From the sequence record OR757434.1: 64,000 nt of DNA; one strand, 5' to 3'. The first letter of the stretch is position 1. Each line of letters begins with the position of its first letter. The notes beneath the pieces were generated by a model. That model did not search any database. It saw nothing but the letters and a program-made list of their open reading frames with translations, and was not told where the DNA came from. Made by a program: the position numbers and the translations under genes. Positions 23,826 to 29,884 of this stretch are shown here, piece by piece. Origin of the DNA: Escherichia phage vB-EcoP-XT18.

Positions 23826-25898
23826 TCATATCAATCCATAGATGATGTTGTGAAGAACACACCCCCCAACTGCGCCACCTATGTTGAAATTAATTTCAGC
23901 CTTACTGGACCCTGGAGGAACTGAATCAATAACAGCATAGAAACTGAACGAGTTGTTACTAGGTATGTAATATCCAATAGACTCAGAAACTGCATTACCT
24001 GCTGAATCTAGAAACCTAATAGATGCTAGTGTAGTGGTTGTATTCTTAGCCCAAAAACCAAACTGAAAGTATCTTCCGGGATGACACTCACTCACTGATT
24101 GGGTGAAGTTTGCCGAGCTAGTCGTATCTGGGACACCAAAAGAGAATGATGTGTTAAACATAGGAGACGAACTCGGAACATCATTGGGTTGAGAAACTGA
24201 CACTACCCCTGATCCTGTTTGACTAAATGTCCAGTTAGATGTATTTAAGAATTGCCCGGAACCATTACTAAGACTATTAATGTAAGGGCTTACAATAGAT
24301 CCAAGATCCCACCTACTTAAGACAAAACCAGCTCTAGGGTAACATCCGTTAGACACAACTCTCTTACTATCACCGCCGATGAGTTGGCGAGTAGGGAAAC
24401 CAGTGGCTAGAGTATTGTTGCCATACAGAGGTAGAGAGCAGTTTGTCAGAGAAACAAAACCATCCCCATTACTTACTATAGGGACAGAACTAAAACCTAC
24501 AGGGACCAAAATTGTCGAATCTTTTATGCTCAATCTCGAACTACCATTAACAGAAAAAGAAACAAAAGACTGATCCGGTTGATACTCAATGTTCCCATTA
24601 GAAAAAACAACTGTGGCGTTGTCTGTCATTATAATGGTTGGGTCAAAATATCCAGACTTTTTCCCAGCAGGAAGTGAACACGTATCAAAGATGAATTGTC
24701 CATTCTCAAAAGTAAAAGGTCCTCCGTTATCCACGCACCAGCAGTGATTGAACTTTATAACTTCTCCAGAGTTCGCTCTTGATTTAAAAACAACCGTGTC
24801 CGTAAAGCTTCTACTTATTGCACATTTGTCAAAAAGGATCCTATATGAATTATCAAGGAATTCAAGACCAGCTGTTGAGATAAAACCACAATTTTCTATC
24901 CGAACTTCCGACACCTCCCCACTATCAGTCCCTCCAATTACAACCTTTCTGGCACCTAGACCAACAAAGGACACTCCTGATATCTTAGCTGTTGAAGAAA
25001 TCGAATCTCTAAGCCCATAATCTGTGTTTGAATTTATAATCTTCAAGAAATATTGACCTGTTGCTCCAGCCCCTTCCTGAAGCTTACAATTATTATAGCC
25101 TATCAAGGCTCCTTTAGAAACGTCAATAGCTATCTCAGATAATACGGATCCAGAAGTTGGAACTATACAATCGTAACCAGAGGAGTTCACTTTGTTGATA
25201 TAAACAGCAATATCCCCGCTGCCAGTGTAGCCTGCATCAAACACAGAAGCTTCTCCAGAGAATAGCAACCTCTTCCATTTTACAGAAACTCCACTGAAAA
25301 CCACCACCCCATCAGCTGTTTCTGAATTGTCTATTGCTACAAACACACCCCCTCCCATATTAGCCCCTTCGACATAAGATCTTACAAAGACTTTGTCACC
25401 TACAGAAGCTCCCTCTAAGGTCTGAAGTTGTTCAATAGAGGGGAGATCTCCAATAAGATTAAACCCTGTAGGCAGGCCTAGTTCTTGAGAGACCACATTA
25501 GATACCTGACCTAATGCCACTGCTTCGTCACTCTCAACGGCGTTTGGTATACGTATAGGTTGAGAAAAAGTTACCTTATTTGTCATCGAAGTAATATCTG
25601 AGTTAGCCCCACTCTTAGCCGCAACCAGTGCGAGCCTTGCCGTGTCCGGAGAAGAGGCTCCTGTACCACCTTTCGAAATAGGAACAATATTTTCTACAGA
25701 AACATCACCTAATCCTAAATTAGATCTAGCAATAGTAGTATTAATTGCTCCTGTACCACCTTTCGAAATAGGAACAATATTTTCTACAGAAACATCACCT
25801 AATCCTAAATTAGATCTAGCAATAGTAGTATTAATTGCTCCTGTACCACCTTTCGAAATAGGAACAGGCTCCTGTACCACCTTTCGAAATAGGAACAA
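23826..25898 (-). CDS. tail fibre, C-terminal portion (begins inside frameshifted repeat array)
   Basis: N-terminus is 30-aa repeats ISKGGTGAINTTIARSNLGLGDVSVENIVP; TTG start without RBS lies inside the repeat. Confidence 0.55.
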   Translation of the reverse strand: MFLFRKVVQEPVPISKGGTGAINTTIARSNLGLGDVSVENIVPISKGGTGAINTTIARSNLGLGDVSVENIVPISKGGTGASSPDTARLALVAAKSGANSDITSMTNKVTFSQPIRIPNAVESDEAVALGQVSNVVSQELGLPTGFNLIGDLPSIEQLQTLEGASVGDKVFVRSYVEGANMGGGVFVAIDNSETADGVVVFSGVSVKWKRLLFSGEASVFDAGYTGSGDIAVYINKVNSSGYDCIVPTSGSVLSEIAIDVSKGALIGYNNCKLQEGAGATGQYFLKIINSNTDYGLRDSISSTAKISGVSFVGLGARKVVIGGTDSGEVSEVRIENCGFISTAGLEFLDNSYRILFDKCAISRSFTDTVVFKSRANSGEVIKFNHCWCVDNGGPFTFENGQFIFDTCSLPAGKKSGYFDPTIIMTDNATVVFSNGNIEYQPDQSFVSFSVNGSSRLSIKDSTILVPVGFSSVPIVSNGDGFVSLTNCSLPLYGNNTLATGFPTRQLIGGDSKRVVSNGCYPRAGFVLSRWDLGSIVSPYINSLSNGSGQFLNTSNWTFSQTGSGVVSVSQPNDVPSSSPMFNTSFSFGVPDTTSSANFTQSVSECHPGRYFQFGFWAKNTTTTLASIRFLDSAGNAVSESIGYYIPSNNSFSFYAVIDSVPPGSSKAEINFNIGGAVGGCVLHNIIYGLI

Positions 25899-26030
25899 TA
25901 TTTTCTACAGAAACATCACCTAATCCTAAATTAGATCTAGCAATAGTAGTATTAATTGCTCCTGTACCACCTTTCGAAATAGGAACAATATTTTCTACAG
26001 AAACATCACCTAATCCTAAATTAGATCTAG
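25657..26030. repeat. tandem 90-bp (30-codon) direct repeats, about 4 units, with a 31-bp partial duplication
   Basis: Unit gctcctgtaccacctttcgaaataggaacaatattttctacagaaacatcacctaatcctaaattagatctagcaatagtagtattaatt repeated in tandem; extra 31 bp at 25867-25897. Confidence 0.85.
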
Positions 26031-26892
26031 ACCCCTCTGCCGTGGAAGAACCCGTACCGCCTTGGAGCAGAGAGAGAGGTGTGGTTAGACCTGAGAGGGA
26101 GGTAATATCTGAGTTAGAGCCACTCTTAGCTGCACCGGTAATCTGCTCAACAGTATAGTCTCCGGCCTGCGGTGATACAACACCTGTCCGTGAGTTAAAA
26201 CTGGAAACCACCTGTAAAGAAACTTCTCCTGTTTGAGCAACACCTCCATTAAGAGATACTGACCGAACAGAGGGGATTAGATTAGCAATGTCAACCATTG
26301 AGGTTCTATACAGCCCACCAGAGTCCTTATCTACGAAAAAACCATAATCATCCGACACAGGAATACCAACAGGAGTTTCCCCAATGTCTGAAATTGTACC
26401 ATCTGTTCCGTCACGACCCGGCTTCCCTTCTGGAATACCAAAAGAGAATACACCAGTTGTATTGTCATAGGAACCCGTTGCCAAACTACCTGGGGGTAGT
26501 AGCGTCGTCTGTACCGTCATATTAGAAATAATATCAAGCTGTTCTAGGACTTGCTGCGTTGCTTCTCTTGAAAGATCTGTAGCTGCATTTGTATTGTCAA
26601 TAGCCTGTCCCGTAGACTGAATAAGACCTAGAAGAGTCTGATTCTGTGCTTCAAAGTCTTCTTTAAGTTGCTTAATGTCAGACTCTAGCAGGAACCCTTG
26701 AGCGTATAGACGTTCTACCTCAGCAAGAATCTCATCTACTGAAGAATATTTAGTCTGGGATAACAGCGCCCAATATTTAGCATCAGCTGCATACTCAGCC
26801 GCTGATTTATAAGCACCAATTGATCCTTCTGTAGCACCAAATTGGCCTACATTATTCACCGCTGTAGGTGCTGAATTGTTGTAACTGATCAT
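25831..26892 (-). CDS. tail fibre, N-terminal portion (terminates inside repeat array)
   Basis: C-terminus carries the same 30-aa repeats then goes out of frame after the 31-bp duplication. Confidence 0.55.
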   Translation of the reverse strand: MISYNNSAPTAVNNVGQFGATEGSIGAYKSAAEYAADAKYWALLSQTKYSSVDEILAEVERLYAQGFLLESDIKQLKEDFEAQNQTLLGLIQSTGQAIDNTNAATDLSREATQQVLEQLDIISNMTVQTTLLPPGSLATGSYDNTTGVFSFGIPEGKPGRDGTDGTISDIGETPVGIPVSDDYGFFVDKDSGGLYRTSMVDIANLIPSVRSVSLNGGVAQTGEVSLQVVSSFNSRTGVVSPQAGDYTVEQITGAAKSGSNSDITSLSGLTTPLSLLQGGTGSSTAEGSRSNLGLGDVSVENIVPISKGGTGAINTTIARSNLGLGDVSVENIVPISKGGTGACSYFERWYRSN

Positions 26893-26901
26893 ATTATCTC
26901 C

Positions 26902-27678
26902 TTATACACGAGAAGTACGAATACCATAAATATCAGGCAAGCTGCTCTGAAGCCGAGTCATGTTATTCGGAATTGCGATAGGTGAACCTGAGTACTCTTG
27001 TTTCTTATTCTGCTCTACCATTTCATCAAGGATAGCTTTTCCTAATGCTGACCATTTCTGAACTCCGTTGTCATCTTGAACAAACAAGCAAGCATGACGT
27101 AGAGTAAAGTACAGAAGAAGTTCTGGTGCGATAGTAAGAATAGCACTAGTGTCTGTGTCTTCATGGAATTCCGGTGGGTCTGCATAATAACTAAGAATTA
27201 CTGAGTTTTCTGCTGGAATCAAAGGACTTCCATCATCAGGGTAATACGGAGTGTCTGCTTCGATGCTAGGATAGAAAATGAAACGACTACCGAAACGAGC
27301 AAAGTTAACAGGTTGATTGTTCCAATGAGATGGGTTAATTGTTCCATGCTGTCTACGATAGCTAATCTCTTCAGGAGATGTTACTTGGAAGATTGTACCA
27401 TCTTTGGCTCTCATCATCCATTGAGCTTCTAAGTAATCAGGAGGAATGTAAGCTACTCCATCTTTAATATCTAAATACACTTCTTTTTCCAGAGGAGGGA
27501 TACGTAAATTACGATAAATCTCTTTCTCTGCAAAGTTAATAAAGTTTGGAATTTGATTAACAAATTCGTCATCGTCCCTATCTGCCCAGAGGGCCACGGC
27601 CTTCTTTAGCCACCCATAGGTATTGATGGGGTATTGAACGTCAGGCAACATAGGATACCTCCTTCCAGTTTGTGCCAT
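26902..27678 (-). CDS. virion structural protein (possible head-tail adaptor or tail tubular protein)
   Basis: Position between capsid and tail fibre genes; no motif recognised. Confidence 0.3.
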   Translation of the reverse strand: MAQTGRRYPMLPDVQYPINTYGWLKKAVALWADRDDDEFVNQIPNFINFAEKEIYRNLRIPPLEKEVYLDIKDGVAYIPPDYLEAQWMMRAKDGTIFQVTSPEEISYRRQHGTINPSHWNNQPVNFARFGSRFIFYPSIEADTPYYPDDGSPLIPAENSVILSYYADPPEFHEDTDTSAILTIAPELLLYFTLRHACLFVQDDNGVQKWSALGKAILDEMVEQNKKQEYSGSPIAIPNNMTRLQSSLPDIYGIRTSRV

Positions 27679-28153
27679 TGATTATCAGGCTTATTGTACT
27701 TGAAGAGACTCCAAACTTCCTAGCTAAAGCTCTAGCTCCGAACTGTCTGTCCCTCGGTTTATAGTTCTCTAAACAGAAAAGAACTTGTTCTTTAGTAAGT
27801 TTGGAATTAGGGTTATCCTCAAGATTTCTTGGTGTTGAGAGTTTTGTTTCATAAGCATGTACACAGTTTTCTTGTTGAGTACACCACTCTAGATTCTCAA
27901 TCCTGTTATCATCTTTTATTCCATTCTTATGGTTGACATAATCCTTCCCTTCTACTTTAGGAAGAAAGAGTTCAGCTATGACCCTGTGCTCTAGGTACGA
28001 TTTCTTCTTGAAGGTTAGTACACGATATCCCTTATTATTAATACATCCAGCACGTTGCCCTTTCTGTTTATTGAATATGTTACTCATAGACCAGAAAAGA
28101 TGCCCTGTATTTGGGTTATATGTAAAAGCTCCTCTGAAATCTGGCATTGCCAT
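27641..28153 (-). CDS. HNH homing endonuclease
   Basis: YLEHRVIAELF ... VNHKNGIKDDNRIENLEW HNH_3-type motif; inserted between capsid and tail genes. Confidence 0.6.
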   Translation of the reverse strand: MAMPDFRGAFTYNPNTGHLFWSMSNIFNKQKGQRAGCINNKGYRVLTFKKKSYLEHRVIAELFLPKVEGKDYVNHKNGIKDDNRIENLEWCTQQENCVHAYETKLSTPRNLEDNPNSKLTKEQVLFCLENYKPRDRQFGARALARKFGVSSSTISLIINGTNWKEVSYVA

Positions 28154-28195: not shown

Positions 28196-28222
28196 CACAC
28201 TAGCTTGTATAGGTCTTAAAAC

Positions 28223-28247
28223 GAAAAAACCCCGCCCGAAGGCAGGG
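28223..28247 (-). terminator. rho-independent terminator after capsid gene block
   Basis: ccctgcc-ttcg-ggcgggg hairpin followed by TTTTTT on - strand. Confidence 0.65.
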
Positions 28248-28254
28248 TCTAATT

Positions 28255-28698
28255 TTAAGCAGCAGGTGTTACACCTGTGAATTCACAAGTGGCTGTTACA
28301 AGAGGTTTAGTCTCGTGTGTAGCTGTAACAGAGACTGCACCCGTAGCAGTATCAGCAAGAGTCAAAAGACCAGCTGCACTAACAGTGCCCGCTTCCGGAG
28401 GAGTTACCTCAAAAGTATAGTCACTTCCGGTAGAGTTTGTTGCTGTAAACATAGTAGAGAATGCGGTTGTTGATCCACCCACCTTCCCTGAAATCGGACC
28501 TCGGCTAACAAGGGTAGGTTCAGGGTCAGCAATAGCTGAGATCGTAGATGTACCGGATTTACCACCTTTAGTAGCTTTCACTGTAATCGGGGTTTCTTGC
28601 GACGCACTCGGTGCAGTATACAGTCCAGAAACAGAAATAGCCCCACCACCCTCAACGGACCAAACAAATCCAGTTGTTGATGTGGAGCTATCACTCAT
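28255..28698 (-). CDS. Ig-like (BIG2-type) domain, probably expressed as -1 frameshift C-terminal extension of the major capsid protein
   Basis: Frame stays open 31 codons upstream of the ATG into the capsid gene; upstream in-frame translation TITVSPSSVASLPTGATQQFTATA is itself Ig-like; no own RBS. Confidence 0.5.
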   Translation of the reverse strand: MSDSSTSTTGFVWSVEGGGAISVSGLYTAPSASQETPITVKATKGGKSGTSTISAIADPEPTLVSRGPISGKVGGSTTAFSTMFTATNSTGSDYTFEVTPPEAGTVSAAGLLTLADTATGAVSVTATHETKPLVTATCEFTGVTPAA

Positions 28699-28781
28699 TT
28701 GTGCTGTAGCTGTAAACTGCTGAGTAGCCCCCGTCGGAAGGCTTGCAACCGACGAAGGACTAACAGTTATGGTATCTACTG

Positions 28782-29843
28782 TTACGCCGCCACTGCCTTT
28801 CCCGCAGCAGTGAACAGAACACCGGAAGCATACGGGTTGCGGTGACGCAGACCAACTTCCATCTCAATCATCCATTTTTCGTAAGAACCATCTTTAGCCA
28901 GTTCAGTACGTTTCGGAGCACGCAGAACCATCTGAGTCCAGTCAGCGCTACGGAAGAAGTAAACTGCATCGGTAGGCATCCAACGGTTAACGATGATTTT
29001 GTAGCTCTGGCCCAGCGGGTCAGTGATGCTGTTAACTTCGTAAATGAACTGCTTGGTGTTTTCAAAGATACGCTTACGTGAACCCTGAGTATTTTCTTGC
29101 AGACCAGCGAAGATCTTAGCATGAGCCGGGTTAATCATGATGATATCTGCTTCAGAACCAGCGGTGTACAGTTGCAGAGTCATATCAAAGATATCTGCTT
29201 CATCAAAGCCGATGTTAGTAGCCGGGTTAGAAGCGTTCTGTGCAACTTTAACAGTGATTGCACCAGTATCCGGGTCAGCAGGACCATTCTTGGTCTTGTC
29301 AACAACGCCGCCAGCCAGACCACCGTGAGCACACAGGAACTGGAATGCACCAGTCTTACGAGCTGCATGGGTGTCGTTCTTGCCAATCTGATCTGGGTCA
29401 GCGGCAGAGTTAGTCAGGTATTGGTCAGCCAGAACGTCGGTACGAGCCTGACCAGACAGAAGGATTTTCTCGAGGTCACGCTTGATCTCTTTACCTTTCT
29501 TCTCCAGCTGGTACATCAGTTCGCGACCACGACCGTAGTTAGCGGTGGTGTTAGCAGTGTCAGAAACACGAACAACCTTACGCAGAATCTGAGTAACGTT
29601 AGACTTGATAACAGTCGGTTTCATTTCGCCGTCTTCAGCACGAGAGCCTTCGACGTGTGCGTTATTACCATCAACGCTTGCCAGTGCATCGGTCTGCCAG
29701 CTAAAGATAGTCTGGTTGATAGACTCTTTACCGGTCATGGATACGAACGGGGTATCCTGAGGGGACAGAACAGAAATCCAGTTAGCAAAAGAAAGTTTTT
29801 TACCATTCTGGTCATACGATACAAATAAAGTTGGATTAGCCAT
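28782..29843 (-). CDS. major capsid protein
   Basis: 353 aa with strong RBS TAGGAG directly downstream of scaffold gene and followed by strong terminator; order terminase-portal-scaffold-capsid. Confidence 0.6.
   Translation of the reverse strand: MANPTLFVSYDQNGKKLSFANWISVLSPQDTPFVSMTGKESINQTIFSWQTDALASVDGNNAHVEGSRAEDGEMKPTVIKSNVTQILRKVVRVSDTANTTANYGRGRELMYQLEKKGKEIKRDLEKILLSGQARTDVLADQYLTNSAADPDQIGKNDTHAARKTGAFQFLCAHGGLAGGVVDKTKNGPADPDTGAITVKVAQNASNPATNIGFDEADIFDMTLQLYTAGSEADIIMINPAHAKIFAGLQENTQGSRKRIFENTKQFIYEVNSITDPLGQSYKIIVNRWMPTDAVYFFRSADWTQMVLRAPKRTELAKDGSYEKWMIEMEVGLRHRNPYASGVLFTAAGKAVAA
28797..28803 (-). other. candidate -1 ribosomal frameshift heptamer G_GGA_AAG
   Basis: X_XXY_YYZ pattern 7 codons before capsid stop; possible downstream hairpin aacagt ... 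actgtt. Confidence 0.4.
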
Positions 29844-29884
29844 GTTATGTTAGCTCCTATACTATTAAATAATTAATTTGTCGA

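Follow-up and report, generated by a model that had tools for sequence, protein, structure and literature searches.

A −1 frameshift site that very probably joins predicted Ig-like domains to the major capsid protein of a Kuravirus coliphage, and a conserved RNA hairpin downstream

The DNA analyzed herein (a 64,000-nt stretch, called the window below) comes from a coliphage of the genus Kuravirus, a phiEco32-like podophage. Approximately 1.7 kb (1701 nt) at the site of interest is identical (100% at the nucleotide level) to Escherichia phage vB-EcoP-XT73, and the same 1701 nt exhibit 87–99.8% nucleotide identity to many other phiEco32-like Kuravirus records. The genes are arranged on the minus strand in the order portal, small ORF, scaffold, major capsid protein, Ig-like ORF, HNH endonuclease, adaptor and tail fibre (Table 1). 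The order of the portal, scaffold, capsid, Ig-like ORF and adaptor matches that of Kuravirus records, and an orthologous SU10-type capsid gene is present. Its product matches the Pfam family SU10_MCP (E 6e-77) and the major head protein of SU10 (PDB 7z45, E 2.9e-231), and is 92–100% identical to its counterparts in phiEco32, SU10, Paul and YF01. The AGGAG of the capsid gene is the sole ribosome-binding site for both the short and the long products discussed below. A promoter-like site was sought between the capsid ORF and the Ig-like ORF, and none was found. The intrinsic terminator is predicted to close the capsid transcript, and the record of phage Paul annotates a terminator at the equivalent position.

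Table 1. Features of the capsid and Ig-like coding region (positions are those of the window)
Feature	Position	Strand	Basis or remark
Shine-Dalgarno AGGAG of capsid gene	29854..29858	-	read from the sequence 5′ of the ATG
Major capsid protein gene, 0 frame	28782..29843	-	353 aa, 38.79 kDa; TAA stop 28784..28782
Slippery heptamer G_GGA_AAG (GGGAAAG)	28797..28803	-	in phase with the capsid frame
−1 frame extension, 180 codons plus TAA (28257..28255)	28255..28797	-	translation of the −1 frame
GSGG linker ahead of domain 1	28797..28786	-	translation of the −1 frame
Predicted Ig-like domain 1 (Big_2), extension residues about 7–90	28528..28779	-	Pfam, AlphaFold2
Predicted Ig-like domain 2, extension residues about 92–180	28258..28524	-	AlphaFold2, Foldseek
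Small hairpin UAACAGU-N10-ACUGUUA	28761..28784	-	part of the 99-nt MFE structure; takes in the capsid stop codon
Conserved long RNA hairpin, 59 nt	28712..28770	-	RNAalifold
Apical stem of long hairpin, CCUUCGUCGG/CCGACGGGGG	28758..28749 / 28737..28728	-	RNAalifold
ATG called by gene finders as start of a ‘hypothetical protein’	28696..28698	-	extension residue 34
Intrinsic terminator stem and T-rich tail, just past the extension stop codon	28227..28250	-	predicted

The 3′ end of the capsid gene reads TTC ACT GCT GCG GGA AAG GCA GTG GCG GCG TAA, and thus four sense codons (GCA GTG GCG GCG) separate a GGGAAAG heptamer from the stop codon. In the capsid frame the heptamer is divided as G_GGA_AAG, which has the required X_XXY_YYZ phase, and its presence ahead of the capsid stop had been proposed in the original prediction. 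This heptamer is among the most shift-prone in E. coli (PMC5009743). GGGAAAG occurs nine times on the two strands of the window, which is approximately the chance expectation. The heptamer alone is therefore uninformative, and the argument is borne by its phase, position and conservation. A Shine-Dalgarno-like run was sought 5′ of the heptamer, and none was seen.

The same protein would be expected if RNA polymerase slipped at GGGAAAG and produced a transcript shorter by one base. We consider this explanation extremely improbable. The homopolymer runs at this site are just G3 and A3, whereas known transcriptional slippage sites are far longer runs (reviewed in PMC5009743). Furthermore, the exact X_XXY_YYZ phase fits tandem re-pairing of tRNAs, and this phase is kept across genera.

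Reading in the −1 frame from the last G of the heptamer yields GSGGVTVDTITVSPSSVASLPTGATQQFTATAQMSDSS..., which continues for 180 codons. The predicted fusion protein has 529 amino acids and a mass of 55.98 kDa, compared with 38.79 kDa for the capsid protein alone. The computed increment of 17.2 kDa agrees with the ∼17 kDa anticipated earlier. The predicted junction peptide is ...FTAAGK/GSGGVTVD (that is, ...FTAAGKGSGGVTVDTITVSPSSVASLPTGATQQFTATAQMSDSSTSTTGFVWSVEGGGAISVSGLYTAPSASQETPITVK), and so the junction ...TAAGK/GSGGVTVD put forward originally matches the translated −1 fusion. The predicted tryptic peptide begins with GSGGVTVD.

Structure modeling indicates that the extension is composed of two tandem Ig-like domains. 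A Pfam Big_2 match spans extension residues 7–79 (E 5.8e-8) and begins 27 codons before ATG 28698, and AlphaFold2 places the strands of domain 1 at residues 7–86. A Pfam search gave no match to domain 2. The AlphaFold2 model, made with 20 homologues, has a mean pLDDT of 96 and depicts two all-beta domains spanning roughly residues 5–88 and 92–178, of which the second is a beta sandwich. When this model was compared with the PDB by using Foldseek, the top matches were tandem Ig/Big pairs, including those of Leptospira LigA (8gyr, E 7.5e-12), titin Z1Z2 and NCAM. The Ig-like nozzle domains of SU10 also were returned. In addition, the Big_2 stretch of the extension can be aligned to the Big_2 domain found at the C terminus of the capsid protein of phi29 (6qvk).

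The ORF list includes a minus-strand ORF of 147 aa at 28255..28698, whose ATG is the start called by gene finders. This ORF was originally described as lacking a ribosome-binding site and as beginning inside an Ig-like domain, and both observations are borne out. The 32 nt located 5′ of the ATG (GGGCTACTCAGCAGTTTACAGCTACAGCACAA) contain no Shine-Dalgarno-like run, in contrast to the AGGAG of the capsid gene and the AAGGAGG of the HNH gene. The ATG specifies Met34 of the extension, which falls past the first strands of domain 1 predicted by AlphaFold2. As foreseen, no independent initiation site backed by a ribosome-binding site was found for the Ig-like ORF.

Several details of the original prediction require revision. 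Upstream of ATG 28698, the Ig frame extends without a stop for 55 codons rather than 31, back to a TGA at 28866..28864, and it overlaps the capsid gene by 27 codons rather than 30. The peptide TITVSPSSVASLPTGATQQFTATA, which had been placed in this overlap, is actually encoded at 28773..28702, past the capsid stop codon. After a slip, the overlap with the capsid gene would comprise only GSGG and part of a Val codon. The distance from the slip site to ATG 28698 is 33 codons. According to the ORF list, no ATG, GTG or TTG codon is present in the Ig frame between 28863 and 28698.

These characteristics are relevant to the possibility that the Ig-like ORF is a separate gene with its own start (ATG 28698 here, GTG in phiEco32), which would produce a free decoration protein that binds the capsid. 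Most GenBank records are annotated in this manner, and the SU10 structure paper considers gp10 to be a possible separate minor capsid protein (PMC9509320). However, ATG 28698 lacks a Shine-Dalgarno sequence and is replaced by AAA in members of the phiEco32 clade and by CTA in those of the E20-1 clade, and this phage has ATA where phiEco32 has the GTG with which its gene 12 is annotated to begin. A product started at the ATG would be missing the first predicted strands of domain 1. Moreover, over the 27 codons that separate the capsid stop from the ATG position, pN/pS is 0.20 in the −1 frame, versus 1.52 and 2.00 in the other frames, yet no start codon gives access to these codons in this phage. 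This low ratio indicates that a stretch unreachable by initiation is maintained as protein. We therefore judge a separate gene to be very unlikely, and ATG 28698 is probably just an internal Met codon of the extension. Because the Ig frame lacks its own start and Shine-Dalgarno sequence, because the annotated start is not conserved, and because the −1 frame is under purifying selection, the extension is very probably reached by frameshifting.

The extension might instead be a decaying remnant, for which slippage is negligible and the Ig region has no useful expression in this phage, as has been proposed for SU10. That phage is reported to have a premature stop in the −1 frame and to lack decoration density (PMC9965538, PMC9509320), and the present site is without a stimulatory structure at the canonical spacing. 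Decay is nevertheless difficult to reconcile with a pN/pS of 0.20 or with an ORF that remains intact over 180 codons, for which the chance probability, (61/64)^180, is ∼2e-4. Both heptamer and frame persist throughout the rest of the group, in which some extensions reach 545 codons, and the pLDDT of the AlphaFold2 model is consistent with well-formed domains. Thus we give this possibility very little credence as well.

Roughly 125 Kuravirus-group junctions were located by nucleotide search. Conservation was examined in a set of 21 distinct junction sequences, which were drawn both from metagenome contigs and from phages of Kuravirus and Suseptimavirus in GenBank. The pattern used for the metagenome scan, GCGGGAAAGG-N6-15-GTAACAGT, is loose, and most of the matches listed are due to chance. 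BLAST filtering of the matches listed revealed at least 10 true Kuravirus-like loci. All 21 Kuravirus-group junctions retain GCGGGAAAGG with its GGGAAAG. The −1 offset likewise is retained in 21 of 21, and the length from heptamer to stop changes only by 3-nt indels. Every extension in the set starts with G(S)GGVTVD[ST][IV]TVSP, and the lengths range from 178 to 545 codons through the addition of Ig-like modules. Conservation of the heptamer within Kuravirus is not strong evidence by itself because a nearby 29-nt stretch is equally invariant in this genus. Conservation across genera carries more weight.

Phages outside this group exhibit a variety of arrangements. In Privateervirus, whose capsid protein has ∼56% identity, GCGGGAAAG lies immediately 5′ of the stop codon and is followed by an extension with I-set and Big_2 domains. 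Escherichia phage PJNS034 carries C_CCA_AAA at the equivalent site, again followed by an Ig-like extension. The Vibrio and Aeromonas relatives examined that have the SU10-type capsid family carry neither the heptamer nor the extension. SeKF_80, A24 and BUCT695 have two capsid paralogues, the second of which includes Big_2 in frame. This variety among capsid lineages fits the published view that Ig-like domains may be added to the structural genes of phages in frame or out of frame, with frameshifting recruited in the latter case (PMC5009743).

The original prediction also suggested a possible hairpin downstream from the heptamer, and RNA folding reveals two candidates (Table 1). The small hairpin is separated from the heptamer by 12 nt in this phage and by 9 nt in the phiEco32 clade. 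Its seven base pairs are all invariant across the alignment, and so covariation neither supports nor opposes this pairing. The small hairpin and the base of the long hairpin are mutually exclusive. At the canonical distance of 5–9 nt 3′ of the heptamer no structure was found, and the nearest is the small hairpin (9–12 nt).

Evidence for the long hairpin is more extensive. Among the cells of the alignment, 98.9% are paired, compared with 93% when shuffled, and none of 500 shuffles matched the native value. When the pairing partners were slid, pairing fell to 28–51%. Three compensatory pairs are present, and one of these appears as U-A, G-C or A-U. In this variable pair, one partner is the third base of a Ser codon, where changes are synonymous, and it co-varies with the middle base of a codon for Pro, Gln, Leu or Glu. 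The 59-nt segment has a predicted folding energy of −24.6 kcal/mol (z −4.2), and all clades share the fold (−22.6 to −30.2 kcal/mol). For each of eight clade representatives, the stability of the native sequence was reached by none of 1000 synonymous recodings (z −4.2 to −6.0), which indicates that the codons used favour the fold. The start of the long hairpin is fixed at 11–13 nt past the stop codon, which places it 26–28 nt past the heptamer in this phage and 23–28 nt past it across clades. Privateervirus and PJNS034, which are independent frameshifting lineages, also have more downstream structure than their synonymous recodings, starting 6–7 nt and ∼15 nt past the slip site, respectively. 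An Rfam search of 28200..28900 returned nothing at the gathering score, and the weak matches lie on the terminator.

A stem-loop that encloses the slip site has been proposed for SU10, and it is seen here as CACUGC...GCAGUG and in RNAalifold pairs between columns 2–20 and 29–51. Only one-sided changes are seen in its pairs. We do not count this structure as a stimulator because a ribosome positioned on the heptamer would already have unwound its 5′ arm. The long hairpin is distinct from that stem-loop.

The long hairpin could represent an undescribed functional RNA element of the recoding cassette, although we regard this conclusion as tentative and rather doubtful. It may act as a modulator of frameshifting from an unusually long distance of 23–28 nt. 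It may instead function as a barrier that protects the capsid message and thereby helps set the ratio of short to long forms. In this second reading, the Ig region past the stop codon would be mostly untranslated, and therefore exposed to Rho-dependent termination and exonuclease decay.

Frameshifting at the capsid gene to add Ig-like domains is real and already known, and so it is not a new finding, since the same site has been published for close relatives (PMC4281155, PMC7881722, PMC9965538). For SU10, a shift at GGGAAAG within the gene for the major head protein is reported to fuse this protein to an Ig-like coding sequence, and forms of 38.5 and 55.4 kDa were reported from mass spectrometry (PMC4281155). 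One passage of that report describes the shift ‘as in phage phiEco32’ (PMC4281155). In contrast, Ig-like decoration density is lacking from the SU10 head determined by cryo-EM (PMC9509320), and no band for the long form was seen (PMC9509320, PMC9965538). The premature stop in the −1 frame that the YF01 authors report for SU10 explains the undecorated head (PMC9965538). Privateer has the same frameshift signal and yields two gel bands, with the minor form detected by mass spectrometry, and the same paper states that such a product had been observed for phiEco32 and SU10 as well (PMC7881722). Both capsid forms thus have been reported in virions of relatives (PMC4281155, PMC7881722), and the YF01 paper describes short and long capsid forms for the whole group (PMC9965538).

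The orthologous sites of phiEco32 (gp11/gp12), SU10 (gp9+gp10), Paul and YF01 carry the identical GGGAAAG three or four codons before the stop. The capsid protein terminates with the four-codon tail AVAA in this phage, NJ01 and XT73, and with VAA in phiEco32. As is observed here, the first extension domain of the phiEco32 type is a homologous Big_2. The extensions differ in length, with 180 codons and two domains in this phage versus 545 codons in Paul, 543 in YF01, 351 in SGF2 and 459 in Bas86. Privateer resembles this phage in having GGGAAAG at the end of an SU10-type capsid gene and a long form with Ig-like domains. Privateervirus is different in that the stop codon directly follows the heptamer, the extension is of the I-set plus Big_2 type, and a hairpin starts 6–7 nt downstream.

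Similar logic is used by more distant phages. In Lactobacillus phage A2 (gp5A/5B), a −1 shift also appends Ig-like domains to the capsid protein, and its heptamer, C_CCA_AAA, is the one found in the relative PJNS034. Unlike the phage studied here, however, A2 and similar systems involve unrelated phages, hosts and capsid families. T7 uses a different slip site, G_GUU_UUC, and T7-type 10A/10B systems resemble the present locus in their logic, in which a −1 shift occurs where the capsid gene ends. The analogy to T7 10A/10B drawn in the original prediction holds for the mechanism, in that the −1 shift near the 3′ end of the capsid gene in T3 and T7 produces a minor, longer subunit, but it does not extend to the Ig-like character of the added segment (PMC5009743). 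The T3 10B extension is Ig-like whereas that of T7 is not, which makes T3 the better parallel (PMC5009743). Ig-like domains added by frameshifting to phage structural proteins have been described more generally (Fraser et al. 2006, as cited in PMC9965538). Finally, phi29 gp8 and the second paralogues of SeKF_80, A24 and BUCT695 resemble the long form in being HK97-type capsid proteins with C-terminal Big_2 domain(s). In these proteins Big_2 is in frame, and therefore recoding is unnecessary. The ratio of forms in SeKF_80, A24 and BUCT695 is set by two genes, whereas phi29 carries the domain on every subunit.

Our observations concern how the site is laid out, the missing start codon of the extension, the selection that acts on the −1 frame, the degree to which the heptamer and its offset are conserved, and the Ig-like folds. 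The phased heptamer, the startless Ig frame, the pN/pS of 0.20 and the 21 of 21 conserved junctions support the interpretation of this site as a programmed −1 frameshift. Judging from these sequence features, a −1 shift at the heptamer very probably yields a capsid–Ig fusion in this phage.

The simplest mechanism would proceed as follows. Ribosomes would initiate at a single ribosome-binding site, that of the capsid gene, and the majority would terminate at the TAA to release the 353-aa major capsid protein. A minority, at a rate that we infer, would slip by −1 on G_GGA_AAG with GGA in the P site and AAG in the A site, where both tRNAs would re-pair. The final G then would be decoded a second time, as the initial base of GGC, and translation would continue as GGC AGT GGC GGC GTA... 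in the −1 frame to 28255. The resulting product would be a 529-aa capsid protein with a C-terminal GSGG linker and two tandem Ig-like domains. This long form, whose incorporation we likewise infer for this phage, would co-assemble in the prolate head as a minor subunit with its Ig-like domains outside.

The conserved hairpin past the capsid stop codon is possibly the only new element at this site, and it represents a small addition to the knowledge of this capsid recoding site. There are also consequences for genome annotation. Among the records inspected, a joined CDS is given in GenBank for only Paul and YF01, and the Paul entry is accompanied by the note ‘Frameshift at GGGAAAG; Frameshift in PhiEco32 major capsid protein product as well’. 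The majority of entries for Kuravirus phages, including that of the 100%-identical XT73, omit this documented recoding site and list the Ig-like ORF separately (‘hypothetical’ or ‘Ig domain’) with arbitrary starts. Pipelines that miss the join therefore misreport a protein of the virion surface.

On the head, the Ig-like domains would lie farther out than any other feature, and their role is probably weak binding to surface carbohydrates. Their outermost position, together with their modular variation (from two to several domains, 178–545 codons), suggests that they probably affect adherence to surfaces. Such an effect would be relevant since phages of this type have been isolated against avian and multidrug-resistant E. 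coli.

A long, conserved RNA hairpin follows the stop codon of the capsid gene, downstream of the site of the probable −1 frameshift that fuses two Ig-like domains to the capsid protein. Compensatory pairs are present in this hairpin, and the native codon choice is far more prone to form structure than its alternatives, as none of 1000 synonymous recodings matched it. The stem-loop published for the relative SU10 differs from this hairpin.

For SU10, publications conflict on whether the long capsid form is produced. It was detected by mass spectrometry in 2014 (PMC4281155), whereas neither the cryo-EM map nor the gel showed this form in 2022 (PMC9509320). A premature stop in the −1 frame of SU10 was reported in 2023 (PMC9965538).

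Features of the window and of relatives' loci (handles beginning with L)
Feature	Location	Strand	Remark
Long RNA hairpin, conserved	window 28712..28770	minus	begins 11-13 nt past capsid stop
HNH_3 endonuclease ORF	window 27641..28153	minus	170 aa
Adaptor ORF	window 26902..27678	minus	
Tail-fibre-like ORF	window 25831..26892	minus	from ORF list
Slippery heptamer C_CCA_AAA, Escherichia phage PJNS034	L020, about 3890		one codon ahead of capsid stop
Two tandem capsid paralogues, Salmonella phage SeKF_80	L019 1984-2922 and 3001-4770		
Two tandem capsid paralogues, Cronobacter phage A24	L027 2992-3930 and 4011-5096		
Two tandem capsid paralogues, Aeromonas phage BUCT695	L028 3001-3972 and 4049-5281		

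Compared with the otherwise near-identical phage XT73, the endonuclease ORF is an insertion of ~470 bp, placed directly behind the adaptor gene's five initial codons (MAMPD). The ribosome binding site and start codon of the adaptor now serve the endonuclease ORF. At its N-terminus the adaptor ORF carries a new sequence (MAQTGRRYPMLPDVQ...), whose coding region overlaps the 3′ end of the endonuclease ORF. Phage Bas86 shows the same layout, as does one ENA contig. The tail-fibre-like ORF carries a direct repeat at its end, with two copies of SNLGLGDVSVENIVPISKGGTG.

One of the records compared, that of phage NJ01 (NC_018835), has no CDS entry for the major capsid gene even though the ORF is intact (L002 1558-2619), and its numbering skips locus tag NJ01_021 on passing from the scaffold gene to the Ig ORF.

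The slippery heptamer of PJNS034 is unlike the GGGAAAG of Kuraviruses. Downstream of it are a 132-codon −1 ORF for Ig-like domains and two strong hairpins (z −5.4), and the record carries no frameshift annotation at this site. In SeKF_80, A24, and BUCT695, Big_2 domains are joined in frame to the second capsid paralogue. Gene duplication in these three phages is another route to a pair of short and long capsid proteins, for which Kuraviruses use frameshifting.
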